A stretch of DNA of 64,000 bases from an uncultured Myxococcales bacterium (GCA_964568275.1 CAZMRP010000001.1:8382-72381), one strand, 5' to 3'. Shown: positions 11,484 through 31,914, counted from the stretch's first letter. A program made the numbers and translations. The notes: generated from the sequence alone by a model not told the origin.

Positions 11484-11485
11484 CG

Positions 11486-12707: not shown

Positions 12708-12750
12708 TACTCCCATACCCGTCGGAACCATTGACGTATTCTAGCCGTTC

Positions 12751-12800: not shown

Positions 12801-12857
12801 TTGGGAGTCCGAAATGGAGTCCGTGATGTGGACGGCGGAGTCCGGTTCCAGGCGACC

Positions 12858-13619
12858 TCACGCACGGCAGATCACCCCCACATCGATGAGCGCCTCCAGA
12901 TGGTCTCGAAGGGTCCGTGGAACCGGTCCGCCAGGAATCGCCACCCCGGCTTCCATGTTCTTCTCCAACGCGTAGCCCGTAAGGTTCGCGCTGGTGATGA
13001 AGGCGCGTGCCCCGTCCACCACCGCCACCTTCGCATGGACCTTGCCATCGACGAACGGCTCCGGCTTTTCCTTCCACGTGTAGATCTCGGCAGAGGGGAC
13101 GCAACCACGCATCGTCGCAGCAGGGTCGACGCTGAGGCTGCCTCCGTGACTCGTCGAGGCTTCTAGCAGTACGCGGATGCGGACGCCGCGCGCGTTCGCC
13201 TCGTTCATCGCCTTCACGACGCTGGGCACGTCGTAGGCGACGAAGCTGACGAGAAAGAGATCCTTGTCAGCACTACGAATCATGTCGATTAGAACCTGCT
13301 CGGTGCGACGTGTCGCAACGAACCGTGTCGTCGGACCCGTCCAGACCAGCTCAACGTTGAGCTCTTCCTCCGTTCGCCTACGCGCCGCGGACGCCCCGAG
13401 AAGCATGCCGGCGACCTCGACTCCGCTGGCGGGCGTACTCGCCCATGCATCCAGGAGACGGACCACAGAAGCGCGGGCGGCCGGGGTTCCTACCAGCGAT
13501 TCGGCGCCCGGTGCGTCGGAGGGACTCGAGATGCCCCGCAACGCTCCGGCGACAGCCCCCACCTTCGTCGGCGATACCAACGCGACGAGATCCACGATGG
13601 CGTCGAGGAGAGCCTGCAT
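12858..13619 (-). CDS. drmC: PLD-family (HxK x4 D) nuclease, DISARM DrmC-like
   Basis: VHAKVAVVDG...ITSANLT; start ATG overlaps drmB stop (TGATG). Confidence 0.65.
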   Translation of the reverse strand: MQALLDAIVDLVALVSPTKVGAVAGALRGISSPSDAPGAESLVGTPAARASVVRLLDAWASTPASGVEVAGMLLGASAARRRTEEELNVELVWTGPTTRFVATRRTEQVLIDMIRSADKDLFLVSFVAYDVPSVVKAMNEANARGVRIRVLLEASTSHGGSLSVDPAATMRGCVPSAEIYTWKEKPEPFVDGKVHAKVAVVDGARAFITSANLTGYALEKNMEAGVAIPGGPVPRTLRDHLEALIDVGVICRA

Positions 13620-15457
13620 CAGATCGCCCCGAAGAACGCGGCGTCGGTCACTTGGAGCGTCGGGATGACGAGGGCTCGGTCGAGATACCGGTTGCCACAC
13701 TCGCACGATGTCTCGGAGACGAACGAGCACGCGTGGCACGAGGCGGCGTGGAGCGACTGGTCCTTCCGAGGGTCGTGCTCGGCGCACAAGGGATCCGAGG
13801 CGCACACCTTCGCACGATCGAGCGCCTGCCTGAGCAGTCGCCCCAAGTTCTCGGGTTTGCCCAGCTCGACGAGCCCGCCGAGCGTTCCGTCCGAGTCGGC
13901 GGCAGCCGTGTAGATCAGGATGCCCGCCTGCGACTTGCCGCCTTCGGTATCGGCGTAGACGCGCTCACGGATGCTCGCCGCGTTGTAGCCGCAGTCGAGC
14001 GCCAGCTCGCGGATGAGCAGATGGGCAATCGTGTGCAGCAGCGCGAAGCGGACACCGGGGAACCCGGGGTCCGGCTCGAGGCCACGTCGAGCACGCCAGC
14101 CACGGTGGCCTCGGCGCAGGATAGACCCCTGCGCCCGGGAACCGGTGCCGGCCTCCCACTTCGCGAGTGCGTCCTCGCAGAATCGCAGGAAGATCCCCTC
14201 GCCATGGACCTGCGTCGCGGGCACCCAGGTCGGAGCACCTCTGCCGATCGGCGCGCGCGGTGCGCGGTCCTCGCCACCTTCCGTCGGTGATTCCACCCGA
14301 GTGAAGCCGAGAAGCGCGTTCACCTCTCTCAGCCGCTCCAAGAGCAACACCCTGGCGATGTACGGCTCGAAACCGGTGGGGACGTCCACCTCCTTGCTCA
14401 TGAAGAACGGGTAGTCGGTCGGCGGCGTCGGCGCCGTCAGCACATCCCATTCTGGACCCTTCAGGTCGAATCCCTGGTCGTCACTGGTGCCGCTCCGATG
14501 CTCCTCGATCGCCGCCCAGACCTGGGCGCCGTCGAACGCTTCGATGCCAGGTAGCTGTGCGGACTTCTTGAGCGTCTTCACGACGGCCGCCGCCTCCACC
14601 TCGCTCTCGACGTCTTCGAAGAAGGTCCAACCGTCGGCGACGACCTGGGCGAGCGGGCTCCCGGTCTGCGGAATCGCCAGCACCGAGAGCGTCAGAGGGA
14701 ACCAACCGTTCGTAGCGCCGAGCAGAATCGCTCTGGGCACCTCGGTGCAGCCATCCTCGAATCGATCGAGGTGCGGGTGCCGCCCGCGGCACCCCGGCAG
14801 GTTGTCCTTGCCCACCTGGCCGAACGCCTGCGCCATGCTCTTGGCCGCGCCACAGGAGTCGCACCGGACCCACAGGTTCTCGGTCTGGAGCGAAGCGCCG
14901 CTCTCGAAGAACCTGAGCGTGCCCTTGCACCCGCTCGCGCCGCCATGGACGAACCAGTGCCATGGGAAGTCGTCGAGGTGTCCAGCTCGGCAGGCGAGCA
15001 AGAAACGCGCGGGAACGGCATCGGCGTCTCGTGGCGGCAGATCCCCCCGCGAACCACGACATCCCTTGTGGACGAATCTCGTGAACTCGGGCCGGAACCG
15101 GTTCGCCTTGAGTTCGAAGAGGCCGGCATCGAACGGCGACAGCAGACCGCACTTCACGCAGCGCATCCAGCGCGGGAACGGCTTCACGGGAACGCCGATG
15201 TATGCCTCCGCAGAGAACGGATCGACGTCGTCCGCGTCCGTCATCGGCGGCATGCGCAAGGATTCGACCTGGTCGCCGAGCGCCCTCCGCACGTTGGCGA
15301 GCAGCCGGGCCTCCTGGATGGGCTGGCACCGATTGCGCTCCCAACGGTCGATGCCCATCGTCACGACGGAGAGGTTCGGCAGGTCGACGAGCGAACCGGG
15401 ACCATAGGTCCACAGGAGCTGGCTGGGCCTGACGTCGCCTACGGGGGTCTTGCTCAT
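13619..15457 (-). CDS. drmB: DUF1998-domain protein, DISARM DrmB-like
   Basis: N-terminal RPSQLLWTYGPGSLVDLP; C-terminal Cys cluster CHACSFVSETSCECGN; 4-nt overlap with drmA. Confidence 0.65.
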   Translation of the reverse strand: MSKTPVGDVRPSQLLWTYGPGSLVDLPNLSVVTMGIDRWERNRCQPIQEARLLANVRRALGDQVESLRMPPMTDADDVDPFSAEAYIGVPVKPFPRWMRCVKCGLLSPFDAGLFELKANRFRPEFTRFVHKGCRGSRGDLPPRDADAVPARFLLACRAGHLDDFPWHWFVHGGASGCKGTLRFFESGASLQTENLWVRCDSCGAAKSMAQAFGQVGKDNLPGCRGRHPHLDRFEDGCTEVPRAILLGATNGWFPLTLSVLAIPQTGSPLAQVVADGWTFFEDVESEVEAAAVVKTLKKSAQLPGIEAFDGAQVWAAIEEHRSGTSDDQGFDLKGPEWDVLTAPTPPTDYPFFMSKEVDVPTGFEPYIARVLLLERLREVNALLGFTRVESPTEGGEDRAPRAPIGRGAPTWVPATQVHGEGIFLRFCEDALAKWEAGTGSRAQGSILRRGHRGWRARRGLEPDPGFPGVRFALLHTIAHLLIRELALDCGYNAASIRERVYADTEGGKSQAGILIYTAAADSDGTLGGLVELGKPENLGRLLRQALDRAKVCASDPLCAEHDPRKDQSLHAASCHACSFVSETSCECGNRYLDRALVIPTLQVTDAAFFGAI

Positions 15458-18400
15458 GGCGCCTCCTCATCGGTCGTCGGGCGGGGCTGCCAGGCAGGGT
15501 CCGTGAGCGAGCGGTCGTCCTCCATGACGAGACGCACGGCGGGCTCGACCTCGCGCATCGAAGTGGGCACGGTCCAGGTCGACCACGGCCGGATCCCCGG
15601 CGATTCGAGCAGGGGGTATGCCGTGGGACCGGCTCGGTACTTCTGATACACGAGGGTGCGCCCTCCGACTCCAGCTTCCTGGGCCCAGGCATCGGCGCGA
15701 CTCTTCAGCTCCGCTTCCGCCAGGGTCTTCTTCACCGAGTCCTCGGTCACGTCCCATCCGCGCGCGCCGAGCGCCTGTATCGTCGAGATCATCTCCGGCC
15801 GGCTCGGGCTGGTCATCGCGCCGGCCCCCGCGTTCGGGGAGAACGGCTCGAAGCGATTGCGCATCAGCGAGAGCATGGTGCCCGTCAGTCCGCGGTCCAT
15901 CGCTCGGGGAGAGAAGGGCGTGACCGATTGGGCCTCGACGTGCTGGTAGAACGTCGCGTGGTAGTGCTCGTACGTCTCGTAGTGGGAGAGGTCGCGCGGC
16001 CGAGCCCATGTCAACACCGACACGACGAGCCCCGGAAACGCACGACCGACTCGACTCGTCGCTTGGATGTACTCGGCGGTCCCCTTGGGCTGGCCGTTGA
16101 CGACCATGACTCCCAGGCGGTTCACGTCGACGCCGACCGACAGCATGTTGGTCGCGAGTACGACATCGATGGGGCGCGGATCGTTCTCACCGCGCCGGAA
16201 CACCCACCTCTGCTCGGCGATGTCGTACACGCCGTCGAAACGGACCTCGAGCTGATCCAGGTACTTGGGGATGTCGGAGTTCGAGACGCGAGAGGTGAGC
16301 TCCACGACGCTGCCGACTCGCCTCTGAGCCAGTCCCGGCCTCTCGACCAGGCTCATCCTCACTCGGAACGAGCGGGTCTGCACATCGTCCTCGGCCAGTC
16401 GCTTCATCCCTCCCAGCTCACGGAGCGAGTTGAAGTACCCGACGAGGGTCATGTACGGGTCGGCGACCGGACCGAAGCTGTCGAACAAGGCCTGCGCCGC
16501 CGTGAGGATCGCGGTGTAGGTCCGGATCAGCACAGCGGGTCGCGAACTGCCAGGTGCGCAGACTCCCACGTAGCATCGGCCGGGCTTGCTCGCGATGGGG
16601 CGCTGCAGCGAGAAGAAGTCGTCCTCGACGTCGAGCGCCTTCGGCGGGAAGAGCGCGAGCCTCCGCATGAAGACGTTCCGCACCTGGTCACCTGCGCGTC
16701 GGGCGGTCGCGGTCGAGGCCACGACCTTGGGACGAACCTTCGTCTCCCCGAAGTCCCAACTGCAGAGGTCGTCGACGGCACTCTCGTATAGACCGACCAT
16801 CGTCCCCAGGGGGCCGCTGATGAGGTGGAACTCGTCCTGGATGATCAGGTCCGGCGGACGCACCGCGCGCACGGGAGTCACCTTCGCCGCCGGATGCGGC
16901 TTTCGCGCCCGGTGACCGGTCCCGCAGTCGTGCCCGGGCCAGAGCAGTCCATGCCGGTCGCACTCCTCTCTCGCTCGGCCGAAGAGCGTGCGGACTTCCG
17001 GTCGCCATGCCATCATCGCGAACTTGTCGACGGTCGCGATCATCATGCTCGGAGGTCGGTAGTAGATCTCCTCGTCCACGACCTCGACGGGAATGCCCGG
17101 ATGGCGACGGTCGGCCGAACGAGCCTTCGAGAACGGACACCGACTCAGCTTGTCTCCGCAGCAGATCGACGTTCTGCAGACGGTCTTGTCCACTTCGATG
17201 TCGCGCCCCGGAGAGATTTCGGCACCGCACCAGGGGCAGCTCGTGAGCTGGGCCGGCGACGCGATCCCGGAGCGATTGCGATCCTTGTCGCGGATCGCCT
17301 CGATCGCCTGGTGAGATTGTTCGGTGGTGCCCGGGGTCACGCGATTGCCGACCCAGAGGCCCAGCGTGAAAGGCTCTCTGCCCCAGGCGGCCTCCTCCTC
17401 CCAGCGGATCGTCTCCATGGCGCAGATCAGGGTCGCCGCCCTCTGGAACTGCTGCAGGGTGAGGAGGCGCAGCGTGTAGCGCATGATCACTGCGAGGCCA
17501 CGCGTGCCATCCAGCTCGGCCACGACGCCCTGGAGGCGTCGGATCCCCATCGCGAAGGCGGCCACCCCGAGATAGGCCTCCGTCTTGCCGCCGCCTGTCG
17601 GGAACCAGAGCAGGTCCGCGAATGCCTCGGCCGGACTGGTCCGGTCCGCGTGCCTCGGATCGGTCAGGGAGGGTATCGAGAGCAGGAGGAACGCCAGCTG
17701 GAACGGCCGCCACGACCGATTCCCGGGAACGTCGAGGTCGTCCAACTCGACAGCTTCTCTTCGCCTTCGCTTCAGGGCGAAGATCGAGTGGATGCGCTGC
17801 AGCGCCATGGCCCGGTTGGTGAACCGGAAGGCGGCCAGCGCGTTGGGATCCGCGAGGAGGACTTCCATTCCCGCCCGGAGACGCTTCAGGGTCGTATCGC
17901 AGCGATCCAGTGCAGCATTCGCCGGCTCGTCGTATTCCACGACATCGGCGCCGACCCGTGCCCGCTGCTCCCCGATCCACGACTCGTAGTCGTCGACGAG
18001 CGTCGAGAGCGCCCGACGGAGGTCGGCAGGTTCCATCTCGGCGAGCGACGACATGTCGAGCCAGCCGCGTTCGACCATCTCGCGCATCGCCGGGCGGTCG
18101 GCCGGGTCGAGCCCTGGAGTCTCCGTGACCGGAACCTCCAGCCGGGGAATGACCACGGTTCGGACCTCCACCGCTCGCGTCGGATCGTCCGGTGCCGTCT
18201 CCGCGTGGACGGCGACCCCGTGCCCGACAGCGAATTCGACACGTCGACGGTAGATGAGGCCGAGGTGGTCCCGCTCGGGATCGTCGACGACGACGTCGTT
18301 GCTAGGTCGCCGCCTGAAGATAGCCGGAGCCTCGTGGTGCCGGCTACGCACGATGATCTCCGGTTGGAACAGCCAGGCCCTGTCCTTGTTCGTTTCGGGC

Positions 18401-19428
18401 TCGAGCCGACCGTTGACGAGGAACAGCGTCACGAGGCGTTCGCCGTTCGCATTCGTGCGGACCGTGCCCTGCATCCGCACTTCTTCCTCGCGGGGATCGG
18501 GAACGAGCGGGCGAACCGGGCCATCGGTCATCGGCAGTGGCGACGTGCCACCACAGGGCACCCGCCGCCACACCTTGACCTTCGCTTCTTCCTGCTCGCC
18601 CGTCTTCCGGTTCTTCCGAGGCTTCGTGTACTCGTGTTCGTCGTTCGGGACCCGCTCGTACCGGCCCCATCGGGCCGTCACTTCGATTTCATCGACATCG
18701 GGAGCGACGCAGAACGTGAGCCCCATGCTCGAAGGGATCAGGGACTGGTTGTTCGAGGTGTCGATCTCGTCGAGGGCATCGTCTTCGGGTTCCACCCGTC
18801 CGCTGGCCCGATTGAATTCCGCGCCGGGCTCGTGGAGCGGAGCCGGGCTCTCGTCTTCGAGAGACACCTCCGTCGCGTCCGCGGCTGCGGCGGGCTCCAC
18901 CTCTACCGTGTCCTCATCGCCCGGACGCCTCGGCGCCAGCTTGCCGACGAGGTACCGGTCGCGAACGCTCATGTCGATGACGAGCTCCTCCGGCCCGTTC
19001 GCCGGGCCGAGCAGGTCGTCCCGTGTCGCGAACTCGAGCAACTCGCGCACGTAAACGGCGTCCTGAATCAGGGGCACGTCCTCCGATGTCGAGACCCCGT
19101 CGCGGGCGAGGACACTCGCGAGGTCCTCGGGGCGCAGCCGCGCGATCGGTCCAGAGGGTGGCGCGAGCCCGACGTCGGCGAGGGAGCCCGCTTTCGCCAC
19201 GGTGTGGAGCTTGTCGAAGTAGAGCGTGGTCCCTTCGAGGTCGACCCGGATCCGGAGGATGCGCCCTACGCGATTCAGCGCCCCGGTCCCATCGACCACG
19301 ACCACCCAGCCGCCAGGGCCCACCGCGCTGCCGAGGCGATCACCGTCGAGCCGAACGACGAACGGGCCGAGCGACGTCTCCTCCTTGACACGCCATGCCT
19401 GTGCGTTCGGTGCGGTGGTCGTCTCCAT
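15454..19428 (-). CDS. drmA: large SF2 helicase, DISARM DrmA-like
   Basis: Motif I PTGGGKTEAY, motif II IIQDEFHLISG, motif VI QATSRVGR; 1324 aa. Confidence 0.7.
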   Translation of the reverse strand: METTTAPNAQAWRVKEETSLGPFVVRLDGDRLGSAVGPGGWVVVVDGTGALNRVGRILRIRVDLEGTTLYFDKLHTVAKAGSLADVGLAPPSGPIARLRPEDLASVLARDGVSTSEDVPLIQDAVYVRELLEFATRDDLLGPANGPEELVIDMSVRDRYLVGKLAPRRPGDEDTVEVEPAAAADATEVSLEDESPAPLHEPGAEFNRASGRVEPEDDALDEIDTSNNQSLIPSSMGLTFCVAPDVDEIEVTARWGRYERVPNDEHEYTKPRKNRKTGEQEEAKVKVWRRVPCGGTSPLPMTDGPVRPLVPDPREEEVRMQGTVRTNANGERLVTLFLVNGRLEPETNKDRAWLFQPEIIVRSRHHEAPAIFRRRPSNDVVVDDPERDHLGLIYRRRVEFAVGHGVAVHAETAPDDPTRAVEVRTVVIPRLEVPVTETPGLDPADRPAMREMVERGWLDMSSLAEMEPADLRRALSTLVDDYESWIGEQRARVGADVVEYDEPANAALDRCDTTLKRLRAGMEVLLADPNALAAFRFTNRAMALQRIHSIFALKRRRREAVELDDLDVPGNRSWRPFQLAFLLLSIPSLTDPRHADRTSPAEAFADLLWFPTGGGKTEAYLGVAAFAMGIRRLQGVVAELDGTRGLAVIMRYTLRLLTLQQFQRAATLICAMETIRWEEEAAWGREPFTLGLWVGNRVTPGTTEQSHQAIEAIRDKDRNRSGIASPAQLTSCPWCGAEISPGRDIEVDKTVCRTSICCGDKLSRCPFSKARSADRRHPGIPVEVVDEEIYYRPPSMMIATVDKFAMMAWRPEVRTLFGRAREECDRHGLLWPGHDCGTGHRARKPHPAAKVTPVRAVRPPDLIIQDEFHLISGPLGTMVGLYESAVDDLCSWDFGETKVRPKVVASTATARRAGDQVRNVFMRRLALFPPKALDVEDDFFSLQRPIASKPGRCYVGVCAPGSSRPAVLIRTYTAILTAAQALFDSFGPVADPYMTLVGYFNSLRELGGMKRLAEDDVQTRSFRVRMSLVERPGLAQRRVGSVVELTSRVSNSDIPKYLDQLEVRFDGVYDIAEQRWVFRRGENDPRPIDVVLATNMLSVGVDVNRLGVMVVNGQPKGTAEYIQATSRVGRAFPGLVVSVLTWARPRDLSHYETYEHYHATFYQHVEAQSVTPFSPRAMDRGLTGTMLSLMRNRFEPFSPNAGAGAMTSPSRPEMISTIQALGARGWDVTEDSVKKTLAEAELKSRADAWAQEAGVGGRTLVYQKYRAGPTAYPLLESPGIRPWSTWTVPTSMREVEPAVRLVMEDDRSLTDPAWQPRPTTDEEAP

Positions 19429-19444
19429 GCATTTGCTCCTCTCG

Positions 19445-20440
19445 CTACAGTTCCACCCGCGAAAAGTGCGGGTAGATCCGGTAGAACTTCTTGAACACCT
19501 CGAAGGGATCGGTCCCCATGTCCGAAGTCGGCAGCTCGAAACCGAGTCTGGTCTTGGCGTCCTCGTTCGACTCCATCGTCAGCCTCTCCAGCGTCGATAG
19601 TGCAGGGAGGTCTAGCCGGTGTGGCGCATCCGTGGTCGTGTAGAACTCCCACCCCTTCACGAGGTCCTCGATGACCGTGTCGTCCGTCGGGACGACCACC
19701 AACGCCGCGGTGACCATCGCCTGGCCGTCGGCATAGTGCGTGGCGAGCGCCCAGACGATGCGGCGTTCACGGAAGCTGAGCGCCTCGTTGTCGACAGCCA
19801 GCTTCACGGCGCGCAGGAGGCTCGGTCCGTACGTCTTGAGGGTCATGCCCTCTGCAGTCAGCCCGCTGGGGAACAACGCGCCCAAACGCTCCCTGAGGCG
19901 CGCGAGGCGCCACTCGTGGATCGTCGGCTTCATGGAGCGGTCCTCCGACGCCTCGCCTTCGAGTTCGACCGAGAGGTCCTTCGGGTCAGGGTTCCCTAGA
20001 GACGCCGGGTTCGCGTTCAGCGTCAAGCGCACGATGCTGCCGAGCGGCACGGTGCCGATGGTGCGTGCGAAGCGCTCGATCTGCGTCGTGATGCCCCGGG
20101 GCTCGGAGTAGTCGAACCAGACGATGACGGGTGTGTCGAAGTCGGTCTCGTCGAGGTGGTCCTCGAGGGTCCTGTGAACGCACTCGATGGAGGCGATCGG
20201 TCGATTGAAAGCCTGGCGCAAGTGCACCTACTCCTCCGTCTCGATGCACGTCATCTTGGCGATGCCCAACCGCCCGTGGACCAACCGGAAATCCTCGAGG
20301 AACGGCCCACCGAGCCCGACGTAGTGGTACTTCTCGAGCCCAAGCGTCGGCGTCAGCCGCATCAAGAGCGACAGGAACAGTTCGCGGTCCACGGCCTTGT
20401 TCGGCCGCAACCTGTACGGAAGTGAAGAGCCGGCGGTCAT
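19445..20440 (-). pseudogene. single ~330-aa reading frame interrupted by in-frame TAG at 20228-20230 (70-aa and 260-aa halves); unknown function
   Basis: The 70-aa ORF ends ...IETEE-TAG and the next codon GTG, in the same frame, opens the 260-aa ORF. Sits between the GHKL ATPase and drmA. Confidence 0.45.
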
Positions 20441-20442
20441 GG

Positions 20443-21864
20443 TCAGCCACCCCGCTTCTTCGCCTTGGCCAGTGCCAGGTCGAAAGCCTTCTCGCCGACG
20501 ACACCGGGCTTCGCGTTCTCGTCGTCGAGCAACGCCTTGCCGACCAGGCGGATCTCCCCGGCAGGCTTCGAGAACGTGACCCGGCGCGAAGACGGCGTCT
20601 TGTTCGGGGGCTCGGGCAGTACCTTGTTCTTCTTCGGGTTGAACTCGACGCCCTCGTCGTCAGACCTCTTCGTGGCCTTTCGTTGAGCCACCGCCTCGAG
20701 CGCCTTGCTGAGCGACATCGGACGAGCGTCCTCCCAGTGTCGCGCCTGCTGCTGCTCGGCCTCCGCCTGGTTCTTCCACTGATTCGTGTAGTCGATCCAG
20801 ACGCGCATGCCCTCCTTCATCTTGACGAGGGACTCGAGCCACACGTTCGACGACGTGTCGAGGGCGCGCTTGGTCGTCGTGACCGGCAGCTTCTCGGCGC
20901 GCTTCGATCGGAACTCGATGATGCCGGTAATGATGGCAAACTGCGGGTGGTAGAGCGGGATGCCGTCGCCCCAGCCCGTGAGGCGCGTCTTGTCGCCGAC
21001 GATCACTGCGCGGTCGTTGCACAGCACCGTCCAACCTGCGGTCGGCGACGAACGATCGCGTTCGAACCCGGCGTCCTCGTCCTCATCGTTCCCGAAGCCT
21101 CGGTTGAGATTCCTGCCGACGGTGATCGAGACGACCACGCCGTCGATCGTCTTGCGAAACACGTAGGGCGCCGGGCCGTCCTCGCGCTGCGAGACGAGGA
21201 CTTCGACCCGAACGGGCTCCACCAATTTCCCGTTGAGTTCGACCTTCAGCCCCCACTGCAGGAAGATCGTGAAGTGCTCGGAGATGGCCTTGCGCACCTT
21301 CTCTACGAACGCGTCGTTCTCGAAGTGCCGCGCGACGCCCTCGTAGAGTTCCTTGACGATGATCGTGGTGCCCGGCTCCGCAAGTTTCTCGCTCGCCTCC
21401 GTCGGTTCGTTGATGGGCAGCGGATCCCAGTTCTTCGCCTCGAGCCACTGCGAGGTGATGGGCACCTCGAACGTGTTGCCACCATGCCGCGTTCGGACGA
21501 GCGACTCCCTCCCCATCTTGAAGATCGCGCGCTTCATGCCGACGCCGTACATGCCGATGGTCTCGGTGTCCGAGTCGCGGTCGTCGTCGGGCTCCCGGCC
21601 CATCTTGAAGGCGTAGTTGATGGCGACATCGCGCGGGATGCCGCCGCAGTTGTCCTCGATCGAGAAGTGGTCCTTCGCGAGAGAGATGTTCACGGAGTGC
21701 TTGGCGTAGTCCACCTTGTCGCCGTTGGCGACGCGCATCGCGCCGTCGAGGCAATTGTCGAGAAGGTCGAGGATGGCGTCGTCGAGGCTGATGTCTCGCG
21801 TCAGCATCGATACGAAGAACTGCTTGGTCGGAGTCGCCTGCGCTTTGTCTGTGCTCTGTTTCAT
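20443..21864 (-). CDS. GHKL (Bergerat-fold, MORC/HATPase_c-like) ATPase
   Basis: N-box ILDLLDNCLDGA, G1 IEDNCGGI, G2 GMYGVGMKRA; start overlaps drmMI stop by 4 nt. Confidence 0.65.
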   Translation of the reverse strand: MKQSTDKAQATPTKQFFVSMLTRDISLDDAILDLLDNCLDGAMRVANGDKVDYAKHSVNISLAKDHFSIEDNCGGIPRDVAINYAFKMGREPDDDRDSDTETIGMYGVGMKRAIFKMGRESLVRTRHGGNTFEVPITSQWLEAKNWDPLPINEPTEASEKLAEPGTTIIVKELYEGVARHFENDAFVEKVRKAISEHFTIFLQWGLKVELNGKLVEPVRVEVLVSQREDGPAPYVFRKTIDGVVVSITVGRNLNRGFGNDEDEDAGFERDRSSPTAGWTVLCNDRAVIVGDKTRLTGWGDGIPLYHPQFAIITGIIEFRSKRAEKLPVTTTKRALDTSSNVWLESLVKMKEGMRVWIDYTNQWKNQAEAEQQQARHWEDARPMSLSKALEAVAQRKATKRSDDEGVEFNPKKNKVLPEPPNKTPSSRRVTFSKPAGEIRLVGKALLDDENAKPGVVGEKAFDLALAKAKKRGG

Positions 21865-24800: not shown

Positions 24801-25739
24801 CAGCTGCATTCGGAGCGTCGAGACCGCGTAGAACGAATCGTACCTCGGCTCGCCCAGCAGCAGGAGCCCGCGCTCCTCGGCCGCTAGGAGGAAGACGAGC
24901 CGCATCATGACCGTCAAGCCGGCCTCGTAGAGCTCCTGGGGCTTCACATCTCTGAGAAGCTCTCGATTGCGGTCCTGGTCGGCACGGTCGAGGGCCTGGA
25001 CCAGCACCTCGACTGCACGTCGAACGTGCTCGCCGAGGGCGTCTGTCACCTCGTCCTGGTGCTTCAGCGATCTCTCGAAGAGGCTCGGGAGACGGTCCTG
25101 CTCGGGTCCGAAGAGACGGCGCACGCCGAGCAGCGACGCGAACGCGCGGAGCGTCTCCGGCTCCTGACCCCACAGACGAGCGTACCAGCTCGCGAACGTG
25201 GACACCTGGCCCACCGGAGCATGGACGACCATCCAGCGTTCGCCGTTCGTCACGACGCCGAGCGGACAGCCCACCGCTCGCAGATGCATGGCCATGCGAT
25301 CGGCCGGCGAGCACGACAGTCCTCCGAATCGCATCGAAGCGACCAGATCGGTGTCGGGGGAGAAGACGTGCACCGGAACCAGGAGCGCATCCGAGCGAGC
25401 GGGGTCCACCAGAGCCCAGTCCGGCACGATCGCCGTATCGTGTTCGGGCAGATCCGCGCGAGCCGCGGAAGGAACGCGGTCGCCGCGCCGGAGCAGCTCG
25501 TCATCCGCCTCGAGCGCGGTGCGCAGGACCTCCTCGACCCAGGCCTCGTGGAGCCGTCCGAGGTCGCTGTCCTCCGAGTCCACGGCGTCCCGCCACTCTT
25601 CGTAGGCGCTGCGGAGCCGCCTGGCGCGGAGGGCATCCAGTTCCTCCAGTCCCTGCGGGAACGCTTCCCGGAGGACCGGGAGAGCCAGGAAGGGGCCCGA
25701 GACCTCGATGAGCTCCAGCCACTCGTGATTGCGGCTCAT
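21861..25739 (-). CDS. drmMI: large N6-adenine DNA methyltransferase, DISARM DrmMI-like
   Basis: Motif I DPAMGSGAFLV, motif IV VLSNPPWG; 1292 aa; 4-nt overlaps on both sides. Confidence 0.75.
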   Translation of the reverse strand: MSRNHEWLELIEVSGPFLALPVLREAFPQGLEELDALRARRLRSAYEEWRDAVDSEDSDLGRLHEAWVEEVLRTALEADDELLRRGDRVPSAARADLPEHDTAIVPDWALVDPARSDALLVPVHVFSPDTDLVASMRFGGLSCSPADRMAMHLRAVGCPLGVVTNGERWMVVHAPVGQVSTFASWYARLWGQEPETLRAFASLLGVRRLFGPEQDRLPSLFERSLKHQDEVTDALGEHVRRAVEVLVQALDRADQDRNRELLRDVKPQELYEAGLTVMMRLVFLLAAEERGLLLLGEPRYDSFYAVSTLRMQLRVESEEILERRRSAWSRLLAVFRAVFGGIDHPTLHLPAMGGSLFDPDRFPFLEGRSKGSSWRHHPAAPLPIDDRTVLLLLDAIQTFEGRTLSYRALDVEQIGHVYEGLLERTVKRVDDVTLELESGAQAKDPRVTLGELESARLDGDDAVVALFVERTRRSESSIRNALEHEVDARLGARLLTACRGDVALRDRLEPYAWLLRTDPWGYPLVHPEGAFVVVMGIDRRETGTHYTPKSLTEKIVEETLTPLVYDGPAKGAPRESWTLKSPAELLDLKVCDPAMGSGAFLVQACRCLSARVVEAWGIAEAAGNAVNIEGRVHGAGADVEPIPATAEARAEQARRLVAERCLYGVDLNPLAVELAKLSLWLVTIAKGRPFGFLDHNLRCGDSLLGITCLEQLTELSMAPKQQTQGRLFGRNVRQAVEEALAIRLQLRQMPIRDIRDVEAMASLDAAAREKISVSEELADEFISTVLTAETDRVLESRLAGFAVSADRLVNGDNQRRSLATVSNHLRPLHWPLEFPEVFSMARQGFDAVLSNPPWGARLADELQRLWKTIDGDKLGRLVDSFHLFILRAGHLMVSGSSRYHTHNGFSGLVVPDVLLYQGYSQPLREHLLRHHRLVTVCDLGEGVFLKVVRPCCFVVFAACRDPSAEYELSIEKWATGHHETQSLSSAAVASFPGCVIPTTDVGEYREVAALVLKAECKLANLIDDLGIQRGASADNKDVFVVDESLARKERLEEEVLRPVVTGGVHVRPFEVAAGLPLLIYTDKSTKPESVPNIVKWVLRNAHKITCKEVKDGKHELHALHRARERRVFERTPKLLGVITADRPKVAVDKEQRYALDGVYVLAPRHDIDPYFLAGILNSDLMARVYRVFSQEEGRVMAQVKPTLLGRLPMVFPDQGLELSERIASLARRLHGRLSHEDRTALERELNASVEDLFVAATTRRGVEAPEVEPSESRNSKTNAAPAKKASKRRASR

Positions 25740-28700
25740 CGCTTCTTCCCCTCGCTGAGCGACTCGGGCACGAGGAAGACCACGGCCACCGGGAAGGTGT
25801 GCTCCACGAGGTCCGTGTGGCGTTCTTCTATGGCCTTCCGTTCACGTTCCCGCTCGTCCGGTATCCGCGCGAGCCGCGCCTCGAGAGCCGCTCGGTCCCG
25901 CCGGAGCTGGGTCCGCTCGTCCTCGGAGAAGAGCGATAGCTGGCGGGGCTCCTCGTCCTTCTCCAGCTCGGACTCGAGGTTGGCGGCGAGGTCGTCGAGG
26001 AGCTGCATCATGTCCTCGATCTCGCGGCGCTTGCGGATCTCGATGGTGTTGCCGAGCGTGCGGAGCCTCTCTCTCGAGCGTGCCTCGACGGCACCCAGCA
26101 CCGCATCCGTGTGTTTCTCGAAGCGAGCCCTGAGCGCGTCGAAGAGCGACTGCGGCACCTGCCCGGGTCGCGAAGAAGCGAGCCACTCGCGCAGGCTCGT
26201 CACCCGGTCTTCTCGCTTGAAGCTCCCGTCGCGGAGATGGCCACCGGCCTCGGTCAGCTCTTCGTGGAGGCGGTGGTGGTTCCCGCCCGTGATCACCAGA
26301 CGCGAGAGCACGGCGACAGCAGGAGTCTCCAGCTTCGCGTCCGGCACCGTCCGGACGGTCGCGCGATTCAGCTTCTTCACGTCGTCGCGCGCCCAGACCT
26401 CGGCCCGGAGGAGCCGCAGGCTCATCTGGACCAGAGGGTGGTTGAGATGGACGAGAACGACGTCGTCGCGACCCTTGGCGACCTCGTGGTCGAATGTGAT
26501 CGGGCGAATCCGCTTCGTGTAAGGGTGCTCGAGTCCATCGAGACAGCGCGACCACGACCCGGCCAGCGGCGGGAGGTGGAACACCTTGGCTCCGGCGGCT
26601 CCTTCCAAGCCTGTCGGAACGAGGTCCGGCTTGTCCGTCAACCGCAACGCCGTCCTCACCGCTCGCGCGATACGGTCCGGCGTGAGATGCTGCTCGCTCC
26701 GAGTGGTCGTCAGTCGTTCGTGCAGCTTGGCGATCCGCTCGCGGAGATCGCGCTCGGCTCTGATGTACTTGCGAGCGCGCTCCATCCGCTTCTCGGCCAG
26801 GGCGGTGTCCAGCTCTCGCCGCCGGCCTTCGAGCAGAGCGGGAAGCTGCGGTGCGATCACGGGATTCACGCTTCCCATGTCGGCCCGCATCGCGTCGAGC
26901 TTCCTGAGTGCGCGGAGGATGTCGTCCCCGTGGTTGCCGCTTGCGTCGACCGGGTGCCAGATCACGACTTCTCTCTGCTTCTGGCCGTGGCGATCGATGC
27001 GCCCGTTGCGCTGCTCCATCACGTTCGGGTTGTAGGGGATCTCGATGTGAATCAGGAGATTGCAGTGGTTCTGGAGGTCGATGCCTTCCGATGCGGCATC
27101 CGTCGCGAGAAGGATGCGGACCGGAGAATCCTTCGGATCCGCCTGGAACGCCGCCTTGACGGCCTCCCGGTCCTTGGGGTCCATGCCTCCGAAGATCAGC
27201 GCGAGGCGCTCGCCTCCGAAGCCGTGGGTCGCGAGTATCTCGTGGAGCCAGGCCTGCGTCGTGCGGTACTCCGTGAAGAGGATGACGCGGCGGTCCGTCC
27301 AGCGACCGTCGGGGCGGATGTGTTCTCCGAGCCAGGCGATCAGCGCCCCAGCTTTGGAGTCCGGCTGCCGGGAAGCTCGTCGTGCCCAGGAACGCAGCGC
27401 CTCTGCCTGCCGGCGCTCGTCCGCGGACAGGCGTCTCAGTCGCCGACTCGCCTCCTCCACGGCGTCGCCCTCGGCGGATTCGCGGATCTCGTCGTCGGCG
27501 TAGTCCTCCTCGGTCTTCGCGATGGCGCGCCTGAGAATGCGGTCGTCGAGCCGTGACGAACGGCTCGTGCCGACCCGCTGACCTTCGATGGTGGCGATGT
27601 ATCGCTCGAAGGTCGATGCGAAGGCCGCGGGCGACGAGGCCAGTCTCTTGCGGAGCAATCGATGGATGAAATGCGAAGCGGCGCCTTCCTGCTCGTCCTG
27701 CTTCTCGCGGCTGGCGATGTACTCGACTAGCAGCCGACGCGCGTCTCGCTCGTCCTCGGTGTAGTCGACTTCGAGAGCCTCGAGCCGTCTTTCGGGATGG
27801 ATGCGATTGCCCTCGCCGTCGACCAGGTCGCCCTTGAGACGACGGACCATCACTCGTGCCAGTTGCTCCTCGGACGGAAGGACGTTGCGCGAGAATCGCT
27901 GGTCGTCCAGCAGCTCGAGCAACGCGGTGAAGGACTCCGTGTATCCGTCGTGCGGCGTCGCGGTCAGGAAGAGCTTGTGCTGGAAGTGGGGCGCCAGCAG
28001 GCGCACGAGTCGGGTGCGGAGGCTCTCCACCGCGTATCTGCCCACCGTCGGTGCGACGTTGTGCGCCTCGTCCACGATCAGCAGGTCGAAGCGCCTCGGG
28101 AAGCTCGGGTGCGAAGGAAGCGTGTCTCGCAGGAGCCGGATGCCCTCGCCTTGCTTGATCCAGTCGATCGATGCGATGAGCCTCGGAAATGAAGTCCACG
28201 GATTGGCGTGCACGCCGCGATCTCTGCGTAGTCTCTTGACATAGTCGGTGTCGACGATGAGGAAGTCGAGACCGAACTTCTCGATCATCTCGGTGCGCCA
28301 CTTCTCCTGCAGCGACGCCGGGCACAGGACGAGAATCGTGCGAGCCCGATGGCGGAGCAGCATCTCCTGGACTACGAGGCCGGCCTCGATGGTCTTGCCG
28401 AGGCCGACGTCGTCCGCGATCAGCAGGTTGGTCCGAGCCATGTCTATCGCACGGACCAGCGGATCGAGCTGATAGTCCTCGATGCTGACGCCGCTGCGAA
28501 ACGGTGCCTGGAGATAGCCGTGATCCGCATTGGTCGCAGCACCCCATCGGACGGCGTCGAGGAAGGCCTCGAGGTCCTCCGGCGGGTCGAGCGCAGCGAG
28601 GGTCGGAAGACCGGCGCGCTCGATGACATGCGCTCCAGGCTCGAGCTCCCAGAGGACCTCGAGTTCTTCGCCGAGCGCGTCTTCGTCTATGGATGCGAGC

Positions 28701-28819
28701 TTGACGAGACTGCGCTTCGGAAGCTCGGGGGCCGCCGCGGCGGCATCGACGTCCGAGACGATCCACTGTCGGCGTCTAACTTCGACGAGTTGGCCAGGTT
28801 CGGGTGCGGTACCGTTCAT
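25736..28819 (-). CDS. drmD: SNF2-family helicase, DISARM DrmD-like
   Basis: GLGKTIEAG, LLIVDEAHNV, LFLTATPHDG, helicase-C ...NGRIDRHGQ. Start taken at ATG 28819 (MNGTAPEPGQ), not the ORF-track 29065. Confidence 0.75.
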   Translation of the reverse strand: MNGTAPEPGQLVEVRRRQWIVSDVDAAAAAPELPKRSLVKLASIDEDALGEELEVLWELEPGAHVIERAGLPTLAALDPPEDLEAFLDAVRWGAATNADHGYLQAPFRSGVSIEDYQLDPLVRAIDMARTNLLIADDVGLGKTIEAGLVVQEMLLRHRARTILVLCPASLQEKWRTEMIEKFGLDFLIVDTDYVKRLRRDRGVHANPWTSFPRLIASIDWIKQGEGIRLLRDTLPSHPSFPRRFDLLIVDEAHNVAPTVGRYAVESLRTRLVRLLAPHFQHKLFLTATPHDGYTESFTALLELLDDQRFSRNVLPSEEQLARVMVRRLKGDLVDGEGNRIHPERRLEALEVDYTEDERDARRLLVEYIASREKQDEQEGAASHFIHRLLRKRLASSPAAFASTFERYIATIEGQRVGTSRSSRLDDRILRRAIAKTEEDYADDEIRESAEGDAVEEASRRLRRLSADERRQAEALRSWARRASRQPDSKAGALIAWLGEHIRPDGRWTDRRVILFTEYRTTQAWLHEILATHGFGGERLALIFGGMDPKDREAVKAAFQADPKDSPVRILLATDAASEGIDLQNHCNLLIHIEIPYNPNVMEQRNGRIDRHGQKQREVVIWHPVDASGNHGDDILRALRKLDAMRADMGSVNPVIAPQLPALLEGRRRELDTALAEKRMERARKYIRAERDLRERIAKLHERLTTTRSEQHLTPDRIARAVRTALRLTDKPDLVPTGLEGAAGAKVFHLPPLAGSWSRCLDGLEHPYTKRIRPITFDHEVAKGRDDVVLVHLNHPLVQMSLRLLRAEVWARDDVKKLNRATVRTVPDAKLETPAVAVLSRLVITGGNHHRLHEELTEAGGHLRDGSFKREDRVTSLREWLASSRPGQVPQSLFDALRARFEKHTDAVLGAVEARSRERLRTLGNTIEIRKRREIEDMMQLLDDLAANLESELEKDEEPRQLSLFSEDERTQLRRDRAALEARLARIPDERERERKAIEERHTDLVEHTFPVAVVFLVPESLSEGKKR

Positions 28820-29313
28820 CGTCGCCGTCCGTTCTCGCCGGTGTCCGGCGCCAGTCTCCTGCAGGCGCGAGCGATACGTTCCACGATTCGGCGGTTCACT
28901 GGCCGACAGTCGTGCTCCCAGACACGGATTACCGTCCAGCCGGCTCCTTTCAGGCGCGCGGTCTGGCGACGATCGCGTTCCCTGTTCTCCTCCAGCTTGG
29001 GCAGCCAGTAGGAGGTGTTCGTCTTCGGGTATGTCGCATGCGCAGGGCAGCAGTGCCAGAAACATCCATCGACGAGGACTGCGACCTTGGCGCCCGGGAA
29101 CACGATATCGACGGCGATCTTCTCGATGCGGCGGTGCAGGCGAAACCTGAGGCCCTCAGCATGCAAGGCCGAACGAAGCGCGACCTCCGCGCCCGTGTTC
29201 TTCTGCATGACCCGCTTCATGATCTCGGAGCGAGTGAGCGGATCGCGAACCCGTCGAGCAGGCGTCCTTCCGCGTCTCTGCGCTCCGTCTCCACTCTCGG
29301 CGCGTCGAGTCAT
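28816..29313 (-). CDS. vsr: very-short-patch-repair endonuclease
   Basis: VDIVFPGAKVAVLVDGCFWHCC...WTVIRVWEHD; stop overlaps drmD start (ATGA). Confidence 0.8.
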   Translation of the reverse strand: MTRRAESGDGAQRRGRTPARRVRDPLTRSEIMKRVMQKNTGAEVALRSALHAEGLRFRLHRRIEKIAVDIVFPGAKVAVLVDGCFWHCCPAHATYPKTNTSYWLPKLEENRERDRRQTARLKGAGWTVIRVWEHDCRPVNRRIVERIARACRRLAPDTGENGRRR

Positions 29314-29414
29314 GTGCCGGTCTCCGACGACGATTCAGGGTGGAGATCGGGCCCCCTTTGCGGGACTATGCTCGGGAATCGGCTCTTGAATGCCCTCATG
29401 TGCCCCCCCCCAGT

Positions 29415-30494
29415 TCACCCGTGTCGAGAGACGTGCTTCAGGAGAACCTGCCCGAGCGCCTTGGCGAGTTTGGGCGGCACAGCGTTTCCGATCATGCGGC
29501 CGACGGCCTTGCGGTTGAGCCTCTGCTCTCGAGGCCAGAACTCGTAGGTACGCGGGAAGCTCTGGAACAGGGCCGCTTCCCGTAGCGTGATGGCGCGGTC
29601 TTGCTCTGGATGACCGAAGCGCCCGTTGCCGATGCCGGTGCAGAGCGTCGTCATCGTCGGCGACGGTTGCTCCCACCACATCCTCGCGTAGATCGAGCCG
29701 TAGGACCGGCCAGATTCCTTGCGGTGGCAGTCGAGCACGAGGTCGTCGGGCCAGTCTCGACGGGTACCGCCGTCAAGCCGGGTGGCGCGAATTCGCTTGA
29801 GGTTCATCGGCGAGAGGAGCGCAGCCACGTGCAGAGGGTCGTTCGGGTCCTCCTCGCCCGAGGCGAGCGGTGGCAGGTCACCGATCGTCTCTCGCACCGT
29901 CTTCCATTGGCTGGGACACCGATATCGACCCTCGGGGACAGCGATGGGACCGAGGCGCGACGCGAGCAGCACCAGCCTCTGGCGGGCCTGCGGGATACCG
30001 TACTCGACACAGCGGACGAGCTTCCAATCGGTGAAGTAGCCCTGTCGTTCGAGCGTCCGCACGAACCGGTCGAACACCTCGCGTCCGCGGTCTGCGAGCT
30101 CTGGGACGTTCTCCATCGTCACCAGCTCCGGGAGGATGCCCACCACGAAGCGGCCGAAGTTGTCGAGGAGGTCCCACGCCTCGTGTTCGCGTATGCCGTT
30201 CGTCAATCGCGAGAACGGCTGACACGGCGCGCATCCCGCGAGGAGTTTGATCTTGCCGTTGTCGTAGAGCTTCTCGATGCTGGGGTAGTTCTTCCGTGAC
30301 ACGTCCCAGCAGAGAAAGGCAGAACCAGGGTTGTTCTTCACGAAGGCATGCTTGGCCTGCTTGTCGATGTCGATGCCCGCATTGACCTTGATCCCCGCCT
30401 GCAGGAGGCCATGCGTCAGGCCGCCTGCACCGCAGAAGAGGTCCACAGCGCAAATCGGACTGGAAGCGAGCGTCGAGACGGTTCGAGAGGTCAT
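29415..30494 (-). CDS. dcm: DNA cytosine-5 methyltransferase
   Basis: Motif I VDLFCGAGGLTHGL, motif IV PCQPFS, ENV motif; start ATG 30494 (MTSRTVSTL). The 180-aa Arg-rich N-extension in the ORF track is rejected. Confidence 0.85.
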   Translation of the reverse strand: MTSRTVSTLASSPICAVDLFCGAGGLTHGLLQAGIKVNAGIDIDKQAKHAFVKNNPGSAFLCWDVSRKNYPSIEKLYDNGKIKLLAGCAPCQPFSRLTNGIREHEAWDLLDNFGRFVVGILPELVTMENVPELADRGREVFDRFVRTLERQGYFTDWKLVRCVEYGIPQARQRLVLLASRLGPIAVPEGRYRCPSQWKTVRETIGDLPPLASGEEDPNDPLHVAALLSPMNLKRIRATRLDGGTRRDWPDDLVLDCHRKESGRSYGSIYARMWWEQPSPTMTTLCTGIGNGRFGHPEQDRAITLREAALFQSFPRTYEFWPREQRLNRKAVGRMIGNAVPPKLAKALGQVLLKHVSRHG

Positions 30495-30924
30495 CGCACG
30501 ACCTGCCGCTCGGGGCGCAGTCGCCCGCCCGCCTGGCGTCGGTGCGAGGCGCGGAGTAGAAGTGCCCTTCGCCTCCTTCTCGTCCGTCGGGTGATCATTC
30601 TTCTTCCCGCCGCGTCGCCGGATGCTCCCGCGCCATGCACAAGACCCTGGGGTGGGGGGCCTCTGCTTCGCTCCTCGCGGGCCCGCCACGGCCGCACGGC
30701 ACATCACGGCGATGCCAAGCGCCGACACGCTGCACGCTACCACGAGCCGAACCGGGTCCTCAACAGCCGGCCGACGCCGGGCGACACGGTACCTCGCTTC
30801 GCGATGAACGAAGGCGGGGTTCTCCCAAGCACCCGTGACCCGGCTCCGGGTCGACAACGGCCGAAGCCCGTGCCGTCGGTGGCCCGAGCAGCGCAGCAGA
30901 ATTCCCAGCGGGCGCTGGCTGCCT

Positions 30925-31914
30925 CTACGAATTGGCGGCACGGAAGATGCGCTCTCGGTGGTAGCGCAGGTAGCGGTCGGCCGGGGCGACGCCACCGGCG
31001 GGCAGCAAGAGCGACGGCCCGATCGCATCGCCACCGAAGTAGCGACGGTATTGCGCGTCGCGTTCGACGTTCTCCTCGAGAGCGGCTGCGCGGCGGATCC
31101 GCAGTCCGCCGTTCACCGCGAGCAGGCCGGCGTCGAAGGCGGCGTCGTGGATCGGGCACGCCGCAATCCCGTTCCTGCGGTCGAGCCTCTCGCGGTCGCT
31201 CGACTCCGCCCACGGCTTGATGTGGGAGGCGATCAGGAGCCGATGGCCTTGGAGATCCCTCGGCCCGAAGCCACAGAACCCGCATCGGTGGTCGTAGTTC
31301 GCCAGGACATCCCTCGCGAAACGGTGCTGCCCAAGTCGAACTTGTTGCTCCACGAGGCGGCAGGTCTCCTCCTCGCGGAAGTCGAACGTGCGGGACATCT
31401 CGTCCATCCTCTCGCGCCGCTCCTGCAGTGCGAGGCGCAGTTCGCGCTCGCCCAGCTCGTCTTGGCCGAGCATCGGAACGTCTCCGGCATCGATGACACC
31501 GAGGAAGTCCGGCACGCCACTCGCGTCGAATCCGGCGTCCCTCGCAGCGAGCACGATGGTCCGGTAGAGGGCATGGAAACGCGTTGGCTGAGCAGCGAGA
31601 TGCAGGAAGAGCTCGGGCTCGGCGCGGGCCGCGTGGGGAAGTGCTCCCTCCAGGTTCAGCATCTTGTGCGTCAGGGAGTTCGGTGGCCGCCGCAGCGTCG
31701 CGGCGAGAACACGCACGGACGGTGGCAGCCGATGCACATTGCTGCCGCCGAACCCATGCGGATCCACTACGAAGAACAGGCCGTAGCAGAGCAGCGTCTC
31801 CACCGGAAGGAACGGCTCCTGGCGGCTCCGGGCCACGCGACCGCGGATCCTCTGCCATTGCTGTCGTGCCGCGTCGGGCGTCAAATCCAAGTACACGGAA
31901 ATCGACGGCGCCAT
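30925..31914 (-). CDS. HNH_2-type endonuclease (candidate restriction enzyme)
   Basis: RLGQHRFARDVLANYDHRCGFCGF...LIASHIKPW...NGIAACPIHDAAFDAG; start at ATG 31914 (MAPSISVY). Confidence 0.5.
   Translation of the reverse strand: MAPSISVYLDLTPDAARQQWQRIRGRVARSRQEPFLPVETLLCYGLFFVVDPHGFGGSNVHRLPPSVRVLAATLRRPPNSLTHKMLNLEGALPHAARAEPELFLHLAAQPTRFHALYRTIVLAARDAGFDASGVPDFLGVIDAGDVPMLGQDELGERELRLALQERRERMDEMSRTFDFREEETCRLVEQQVRLGQHRFARDVLANYDHRCGFCGFGPRDLQGHRLLIASHIKPWAESSDRERLDRRNGIAACPIHDAAFDAGLLAVNGGLRIRRAAALEENVERDAQYRRYFGGDAIGPSLLLPAGGVAPADRYLRYHRERIFRAANS

Follow-up and report, generated by a model that had tools for sequence, protein, structure and literature searches.

The 64,000-nucleotide (nt) stretch of DNA considered here, from an uncultured Myxococcales bacterium (GCA_964568275.1 CAZMRP010000001.1:8382-72381) and referred to in its whole length as the window, carries on its minus strand, between positions 12858 and 31914, a compact cluster in which the five signature genes of class 1 DISARM (the restriction-modification-associated defence island system) stand together with DNA-modification and accessory genes (Table 1). 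In the direction of transcription, the cluster encodes an HNH_2 nuclease, the methyltransferase Dcm, the endonuclease Vsr, the helicase DrmD, the methyltransferase DrmMI, a GHKL ATPase, a PF20553 protein and then DrmA, DrmB and DrmC. Ten genes are counted, against the eleven given in a preliminary description of the locus, a number obtained only when the PF20553 gene is split at an internal stop codon into two open reading frames (ORFs). In agreement with that description, HNH_2, dcm and vsr lie upstream, and two extra genes are found between drmMI and drmA.

Table 1. Genes of the minus-strand cluster and of its surroundings, in window coordinates (aa, amino acids).
Feature	Position	Strand	Size or supporting match
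HNH_2 nuclease gene	30925..31914	-	329 aa
dcm, C5 cytosine DNA methyltransferase (DrmMII-like)	29415..30494	-	359 aa
vsr, very-short-patch repair endonuclease	28816..29313	-	165 aa
drmD, SNF2-like helicase	25736..28819	-	1027 aa
drmMI, N6-adenine methyltransferase, type IIG/MmeI kind	21861..25739	-	1292 aa
GHKL ATPase (HATPase_c_3, MORC/paraMORC-like), first accessory gene	20443..21864	-	473 aa
PF20553 (Methyltransf_35), second accessory gene	19445..20440	-	331 codons, in-frame TAG at codon 71
drmA, DExH helicase	15454..19428	-	1324 aa
drmB, DUF1998/MZB protein	13619..15457	-	612 aa
drmC, PLD-family nuclease, final cassette gene	12858..13619	-	253 aa
HTH_17 (MerR/excisionase-type) DNA-binding gene, upstream of the cluster	32051..32815	-	Pfam HTH_17 E 9.8e-15; stop-to-stop coordinates
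Excisionase-like HTH_17 plus tyrosine integrase, convergent with drmC	11028..12643	+	Phage_integrase E 2.6e-19, HTH_17 E 2.6e-8
Second tyrosine integrase	3809-4660	-	
PIN-domain gene	3-689	-	

From vsr to drmC every junction is an overlap or a gap shorter than 20 nt, as had been proposed. ATGA overlaps of four nucleotides (-4 nt) join vsr to drmD (28816-28819), drmD to drmMI (25736-25739), drmMI to the GHKL gene (21861-21864) and drmA to drmB (15454-15457), all on the minus strand, while a TGATG at 13617-13621 joins drmB to drmC (-1 nt), and the GHKL/PF20553 and PF20553/drmA junctions measure +2 and +16 nt. The upstream spacing is looser, with 430 nt between HNH_2 and dcm and 101 nt between dcm and the start of vsr. 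The GHKL/PF20553 junction is tight only when PF20553 is started at the ATG at 20440, and it is that frame which holds an in-frame TAG. The overlaps do not seem to be artefacts of wrong start calls, as tblastn alignments with homologues from 13 or more other loci set in within residues 1-6 of most of the proteins, and in some loci as late as residue 20 of DrmA. Nor is this arrangement a matter of chance, because the same tight gene order is found in dozens of unrelated genomes. Regarding transcription, no terminator-like site was detected on the coding strand in 12600-32500, a result compatible with one long transcript without proving it; the opposite strand of the same interval has four terminator-like hairpins, below the shuffle expectation. 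No sigma-70-type promoter was found within the cluster, in a scan of low power for DNA of 67% G+C.

The set of a SNF2 helicase, an N6-adenine methylase, a large helicase, a DUF1998 protein and a PLD protein had been read as class 1 DISARM, whose order since the 2018 description by Ofir and co-workers is said to be drmD-drmMI-drmA-drmB-drmC; this order is kept here, with the two intervening genes between drmMI and drmA. The NCBIfam models are passed with a wide margin by DrmD (DISARM_DrmD, NF038317, 1365 bits; cut-off 610), DrmA (DISARM_DrmAS, NF038325, 1431 bits; cut-off 950), DrmB (DrmB_fam, NF038324, 731 bits; cut-off 240) and DrmC (DISARM_DrmC_I, NF038319, 252.7 bits; cut-off 133), and all five proteins score very highly in PADLOC, with 1507 bits for DrmA and 1285 bits for DrmMI. 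DrmB also matches Pfam MZB (E 6.1e-12), and DrmMI matches Eco57I, N6_Mtase and TaqI_C. The expected motifs are found in DrmD (GLGKT and DEAH), DrmA (GGGKT and DEFH), DrmMI (DPAMGSG and NPPW) and DrmC, whose HKD motif HAKVAVVDGARAFITSAN follows the pattern HxK(x)4D(x)6TSxN. Bacteriophage exclusion (BREX) and Dnd, the two other identities to be considered for the helicase and methylase genes, were rejected: the PglX models of NCBIfam reach no more than 57 bits (cut-off 500), and a dnd restriction model gives E 7e-5 and 22 bits (cut-off 600). The assignment to class 1 DISARM is supported since the NCBIfam cut-offs are passed, BREX and Dnd stay far below threshold and the motifs are present.

The nine genes other than PF20553 are full length with intact catalytic motifs, and no stop was seen in DrmA, DrmB or DrmC in any locus, over about 111,000 aligned codons. 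The ratio of nonsynonymous to synonymous substitution rates (dN/dS) relative to homologues is 0.06-0.23 across all genes. DISARM proper in this genome is predicted to be intact and ordinary-looking, probably active, and carried on a mobile element.

Related loci (given L numbers below) were sampled by similarity to the GHKL protein, comprising 13 genome or plasmid loci and then 80 metagenome loci, and the 51 that extend 5 kb or more to either side of the GHKL-PF20553 pair were taken as evaluable for its embedding. GHKL homologues 75-92% identical to that of the window occur in Myxococcota, Planctomycetota, Steroidobacteraceae, Burkholderia, Cupriavidus, Thauera and others. The order in these relatives is HTH_17, dcm, vsr, drmD, drmMI, GHKL, PF20553 (331 aa, uninterrupted), drmA, drmB and drmC, with the HTH_17 gene directly upstream of dcm in L001, L005 and L018. 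It is found in the 13 genome/plasmid loci, from Myxococcota, Planctomycetota and Alpha-, Beta- and Gammaproteobacteria, as well as in most of the 80 metagenome loci, and the RefSeq annotation of Microvirga terrae plasmid pR24_2 presents the same order. The pair lies between drmMI and drmA in 40 of the 51 evaluable loci, from several phyla, while one locus (L012) has it after drmC and ten have no DISARM gene at all. PF20553 follows GHKL in 82 of 83 loci evaluable for this feature; in the exception, L025, it is present and too divergent for the tblastn threshold. The order dcm-vsr-drmD-drmMI-GHKL-PF20553-drmA-drmB-drmC appears to be a widespread, previously undescribed variant of class 1 DISARM.

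Some relatives carry further genes within this order. In L001, drmD and drmMI are separated by an Mrr_cat nuclease gene (4895-5533), and a second SNF2 helicase and a 444-aa unknown protein are encoded between PF20553 and drmA (12420-17203); in L097, the gene found between drmD and drmMI is an HNH_2 gene. The places of insertion resemble slots that take up accessory nucleases.

At the head of the cassette, Dcm matches Pfam DNA_methylase (E 6.9e-49) and, nearly equally, the PADLOC models MTase_II (263 bits) and DrmMII (262 bits), with the motifs FCGAGG, PCQ and ENV. Vsr is recognized by NCBIfam TIGR00632 (129.9 bits; cut-off 97.85) and Pfam Vsr (E 6.8e-18) and has the motifs LVDG and FWH. The HNH_2 protein matches Pfam HNH_2 (E 1.2e-8), the PADLOC HNH model PDLC04132 (E 1.3e-28) and, over residues 181-267 only, the 'HNH endonuclease' of PDB entry 6yex (E 6.8e-9), and its N-terminal region of about 180 residues (183 aa searched) has no Pfam domain match. 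By tblastn, a homologue of this gene is missing from all 13 relatives first checked (among L001-L017), and the closest relative, L036, has no nucleotide homology beyond position 30461, the HNH_2 region not being shared. Only one of the 80 metagenome loci, the above-mentioned L097, has a related gene (37% identical), and the HNH_2 protein of the prophage locus L025, encoded between dcm and GHKL, is unrelated, its 27% identity being confined to the HNH domain. When the neighbourhood expected of a cognate type II restriction-modification (R-M) pair was looked for, no related cassette was seen with HNH_2 adjoining dcm. The HNH_2 gene is a window-specific addition upstream, outside the shared dcm-drmC cassette. 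Action of the composite as one unit is supported for the nine genes from dcm to drmC, which keep their order in several phyla; the inclusion of HNH_2 in it is not supported, given its absence from the relatives and its distance from dcm.

The first of the two accessory proteins matches Pfam HATPase_c_3 (E 2.9e-9; 37.5 bits, cut-off 25) and carries the Bergerat motifs DLLDNCLDG, DNCGG and GMYGVGMK. Its N-box, G1 and G2 motifs are invariant among 17 sequences from two distant clades, as is the lysine of a TTK motif (K332), which is compatible with, without proving, an S5/transducer domain. A Foldseek search with the structural model returned exclusively GHKL proteins (Hsp90/TRAP1, SMCHD1 and GyrB), and a profile search of the PDB gave marginal matches to MORC3/4 and Grp94 (E 0.04-0.5). 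Across the examined loci, SF2 helicases, DNA methylases, Vsr or nucleases are encoded nearby. Both accessory proteins fall in PHROG families of no assigned function, and neither has a match among the PADLOC (2.0) or NCBIfam models.

The second accessory protein belongs to a family of which 1644 cluster representatives were retrieved at E ≤ 0.001, nearly all free-standing and about 330 aa long. In the model of a homologue (90% identical; predicted local distance difference test, pLDDT, 69), strands and helices alternate and a hairpin stands at the end, as in class I S-adenosylmethionine (SAM) methyltransferases. Conservation is seen in a loop rich in glycine (GLGGP, residues 42-46), in the acidic residue that follows strand 2 (CIE, 65-67) and in the motif FDYxEP, which comes after strand 4. 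Judged from this model, the protein has a class I SAM-methyltransferase fold, methyl transfer itself being a prediction, and the 'O-' of the Pfam label 'putative O-methyltransferase' finds no support in these data. A PF20553 profile had no match in the PDB, and no paper naming PF20553 or Methyltransf_35 was found in the literature searched.

The cassette can be resolved into two interleaved modules because the GHKL-PF20553 pair also exists without DISARM. The first module is canonical class 1 DISARM, and the second comprises the C5 methylase (usually with Vsr), the MORC/MutL-like GHKL ATPase and PF20553. Among the ten evaluable DISARM-free loci, nine have a C5 methylase close by, with a Vsr homologue detected in six of these nine, and the remaining one has a dnd cluster. 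Within the GHKL clade of the window, L039 and L102 are DISARM-free with both flanks evaluable, and L064, L068, L069, L075, L103 and L107 are apparently so, their flanks being too short for certainty. A second clade, about 30% identical to the GHKL of the window, always has PF20553 after it and a C5 methylase, in many cases accompanied by Vsr, alongside; it occurs in Sinorhizobium meliloti pSymA (with an IS66 separating the two genes of the pair), Methylobacterium sp. Leaf100, Youhaiella tibetensis, M. nodulans, a Brevundimonas-related contig and two further contigs. L025 is prophage-borne with the order dcm-HNH_2-GHKL-PF20553 (5509-10305); in L027 (8001-16525) the pair adjoins a dndA-E phosphorothioation cluster; and in L026 (8001-17182) it adjoins a PD-(D/E)xK/RNase_H_2 protein, with a Dcm and HhH-GPD glycosylase pair nearby. 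The filamentous Pseudomonas phage PfAC20 (L108, PP058144.1) has a tightly packed trio of GHKL, a PF20553 homologue (26% identical) and a cytosine methyltransferase at 280-3711, in its accessory region. The accessory genomes of other Pf phages carry defence systems, and PfAC20 is listed merely with an 'incomplete' R-M system, namely this methylase (PMC11878078).

As regards the meaning of this recurrent association, it is conceivable, at somewhat less than even chances, that the C5 methylase (with or without Vsr), GHKL and PF20553 form an autonomous and unnamed epigenetic defence or restriction-like system of prophages, plasmids and islands, which was captured by a large branch of class 1 DISARM that depends on it or is modulated by it. 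Alternatively, the pair could be no defence effector at all and serve the mobile cytosine methylase as a genome-maintenance helper, in which the MutL-like GHKL protein stimulates nicking by Vsr at T:G mismatches, limiting the cost of 5-methylcytosine. The frequency of Vsr beside the methylase and pair in DISARM-free loci, the retention of every ATPase motif in GHKL, and the binding and stimulation of Vsr by Escherichia coli MutL, itself a GHKL ATPase (cited in PMC2292703), agree with such a role. Yet the pair occurs with a methylase and no Vsr in L023, L026, L102 and PfAC20, is coupled to dnd phosphorothioation instead in L027, and sits in the defence-gene hotspot of Pf phages (PMC11878078); moreover, this explanation leaves the methyltransferase-fold partner without a role, so that it is considered quite improbable.

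The extent of the mobile unit is indicated by L036, which is about 88% identical to the window at the nucleotide level, with homology from 30461 to 12858 only, starting at the beginning of dcm and stopping exactly at 12858, the end of drmC. The unit is taken as dcm to drmC because the homology spans those genes and nothing else. The sole break inside the cassette, without nucleotide similarity, covers about 21856-23331, the C-terminal third of drmMI, and this part looks like a swapped target-recognition region, which would imply a different methylation motif. Identities are also discordant between modules: in L034 the GHKL protein is 89% identical to that of the window and DrmA only 52%; in L071 the values are 73% and 81%, respectively; and the PF20553 of the window is nearer to L031 and L010 than to L036, the nearest relative for the rest of the cassette. 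This discordance indicates a mosaic of exchangeable modules that keeps one interleaved order.

Such mosaicism is also compatible with a mere packing together, in a defence island and without functional coupling, of three independent systems, namely an HNH_2/Dcm/Vsr type II R-M system, a class 1 DISARM and a GHKL-PF20553 system. The occurrence of the modules on their own, the lack of conservation of HNH_2, the other nuclease and helicase inserts of relatives (Mrr_cat and the extra SNF2 in L001, HNH in L097) and the six-gene class 1 DISARM of Serratia, which has no GHKL pair (bioRxiv 10.1101/2021.12.28.474362), can all be understood in this way. Against it, the modules are interleaved rather than juxtaposed (dcm-vsr, drmD-drmMI, GHKL-PF20553, drmABC), and this is kept in those 40 of 51 loci across phyla; drmMI and GHKL are joined by an ATGA overlap, PF20553 ends 16 nt before drmA, and the coding strand is free of terminator-like sites. 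Simple adjacency is judged rather unlikely, somewhat less so than a pure maintenance role.

In the window itself, the second module carries a lesion. The Pfam PF20553 match (159.8 bits; cut-off 27) comes from the ORF downstream of the stop and covers profile positions 73-308 only, the missing N-terminus being encoded in the same frame upstream of a TAG at 20230-20228 (minus strand), codon 71 of the gene; the list of ORFs accordingly contains merely a 260-aa ORF from GTG 20227, because this TAG interrupts the frame. A frameshift behind the apparent 215-nt 'gap' between GHKL and the 260-aa ORF was discarded, as the N-terminus lies in the same frame and one TAG separates the two parts. Of 13 homologues, 11 have CAG at codon 71 and the other two GAG or GAA, so that a single C-to-T change explains the stop. 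The next conserved lysine after it is altered too (AAG to TTG). Among the 120 best-matching homologues in the database, practically every one is of full length, with 315-332 aa and in nearly every case 331 aa. With GGAGGAG just before the TAG and GTG just after it, translational re-initiation is conceivable, and the resulting split enzyme would be unlikely to work, its predicted SAM-binding motifs (residues 42-67) being cut off from the remaining 260 residues. As these motifs are severed from the remainder, the second module is probably crippled in this genome, with DISARM proper intact, and the PF20553 gene of the window is probably a recent, inactive pseudogene. The preliminary description had overlooked both this nonsense codon and the fact that a Dcm-Vsr-GHKL-PF20553 module exists on its own.

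Considering the age and reach of this inactivation, a programmed or conserved stop was rejected, given the CAG or GAG of the homologues and the different positions of three other single in-frame PF20553 stops, all in metagenomic loci: L082 (codon ~157), L094 (~259) and L099 (~177). These three may hint at recurrent loss of the gene or at assembly errors, the numbers being small. Long-standing pseudogene decay was not supported, the dN/dS of PF20553 against relatives being 0.17-0.19, which exceeds the GHKL value by a factor of about 1.4 to 2 and is far below 1. The stop could be regarded as the first visible sign that the whole cluster is a decaying, inactive remnant in this genome, with which the other PF20553 stops and the number of changes unique to the window at otherwise invariant positions (17/252 in PF20553 vs 8/374 in GHKL) agree. 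The other nine genes, being full length with intact catalytic motifs, the dN/dS values of all genes and the lack of stops in DrmA, DrmB and DrmC speak against a general decay, which is deemed highly improbable; the values of dN/dS suggest instead an inactivation that is recent and limited to one gene.

Taken together, the locus is very probably a functional-looking class 1 DISARM within a conserved, horizontally mobile nine-gene cassette composed of two interleaved modules that also exist separately, with an HNH_2 gene added and PF20553 nonsense-mutated in this genome. Several points weigh against this interpretation. The modules recombine independently, so they could merely share an address, and the pair is not required for DISARM activity, because the class 1 system of Serratia is functional with six genes, none of them from the pair. 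The share of class 1 DISARM that carries the pair is not inferable from loci picked by GHKL similarity. In addition, the AlphaFold2 model of the GHKL protein is poor (pLDDT 51, with residues 231-377 below 50), an S5/transducer domain and any nuclease domain being unseen in it, and the TAG could be a sequencing or base-call error, which is judged less likely than a recent inactivation.

The surroundings of the cassette fit with its mobility. The integrase gene beside the cassette, convergent with drmC, is consistent with acquisition on an integrative element, and the first 13 kb of the window look like stacked mobile elements, although no tRNA, attachment site or flanking direct repeat marking island ends was found. 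Further upstream of the cluster, 33573-38181 comprises a DUF429 gene on the minus strand, a plus-strand fusion of HTH_XRE and Peptidase_M78 of the ImmA/IrrE type (34389-36188) and a DUF5131 gene of the phage Gp37/Gp68 family (37210-38181), which suggests additional mobile-element or defence-related content. Beyond these, ORFs at 39532-40857 (metallo-beta-lactamase/RMMBL nuclease-like), 44610-46091 (B12-binding radical SAM) and 55060-56730 (ORC/CDC6-like ATPase, a weak match) are recognizable, and several large neighbouring ORFs are without a Pfam match, such as that at 41719-44718 (999 aa). A 40-nt element occurs in three copies, 83-100% identical, at 50796-50835, 60712-60751 and 62529-62568; it includes the palindrome TGCGACGC(C/G)GCGTCGCA and may be an intergenic repeat similar to repetitive extragenic palindromic (REP) elements or a protein-binding site.

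Regarding a possible mode of action, studies of the Serratia class 1 system found that DrmMI, plus DrmMII when present, methylates host motifs, that DrmAB is an autoinhibited helicase complex loading on 5'-overhang single-stranded DNA of the invader, and that methylated DNA lowers the ATPase activity of DrmAB; DrmC is dispensable there and the role of DrmD is unclear (bioRxiv 10.1101/2021.12.28.474362; PMC9142583). In the cassette, Vsr would presumably repair the T:G mismatches resulting from deamination of 5-methylcytosine, offsetting the mutagenic cost of the C5 methylase. From its gene context and its likeness to MutL and MORC, the GHKL protein may function as an ATP-driven DNA clamp, sensor or matchmaker, an idea proposed earlier for R-M-linked MORC and paraMORC proteins (PMC2292703), and PF20553 may provide a second methyl-transfer step on some substrate. 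The pair might read or complement DNA modification, because it follows C5 methylases (or dnd) everywhere, and gene context suggests it as a modification-linked accessory that could cooperate with the cytosine-methylation mark.

DISARM is a less understood major defence system, with its effector step and its discrimination between self and non-self still debated, and a MORC/MutL-like ATPase and a methyltransferase-fold protein in one of its branches would offer two new handles on its mechanism. The pair alone with a cytosine methylase points to a compact system missed by present defence finders, PADLOC 2.0 and NCBIfam having no models for it. Moreover, bacterial relatives of MORC are of interest as ancestors of the eukaryotic MORC chromatin ATPases.

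Compared with known systems, the locus resembles ARMADA and the further DISARM-related systems with a YprA helicase in bringing together a large methylase, a YprA/DUF1998 helicase and a SNF2-like protein, and Vsr-type nuclease domains also occur there (bioRxiv 10.1101/2025.09.15.676423; PMC13463889). It differs from them in that DrmA and DrmB are distinct polypeptides and the nuclease is a PLD protein of its own, features that define DISARM and not ARMADA, and in its free-standing Vsr beside Dcm; the searched portion of the text of those papers has no mention of GHKL or MORC. It resembles Dcm-Vsr type II 5-methylcytosine R-M systems in the C5 methylase adjoining Vsr and in the candidate nuclease HNH_2 nearby in the window. 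Unlike in those systems, HNH_2 is 430 nt away and not conserved with the methylase, and the position of the restriction gene is taken in relatives by DISARM genes and GHKL-PF20553. The MORC/paraMORC R-M operons described by Iyer, Abhiman and Aravind in 2008 (PMC2292703) similarly have a GHKL protein beside SF2/SNF2 helicases and cytosine methylases, together with Vsr and, in some cases, HNH nucleases; however, a constant PF20553 partner is unmentioned there, and the GHKL protein of the window was matched to no named paraMORC family. The closest likeness is to class 1 DISARM, the five signature proteins being present in canonical order with DrmD, DrmA, DrmB and DrmC passing the NCBIfam cut-offs, and an additional DrmMII-like C5 methylase accompanies the locus as in Serratia sp. 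SCBI. The differences are that here GHKL and PF20553 stand between drmMI and drmA, dcm and drmD have vsr between them, the operon is headed by the C5 methylase and an HNH_2 gene lies upstream, whereas the six-gene Serratia system has none of these extras.

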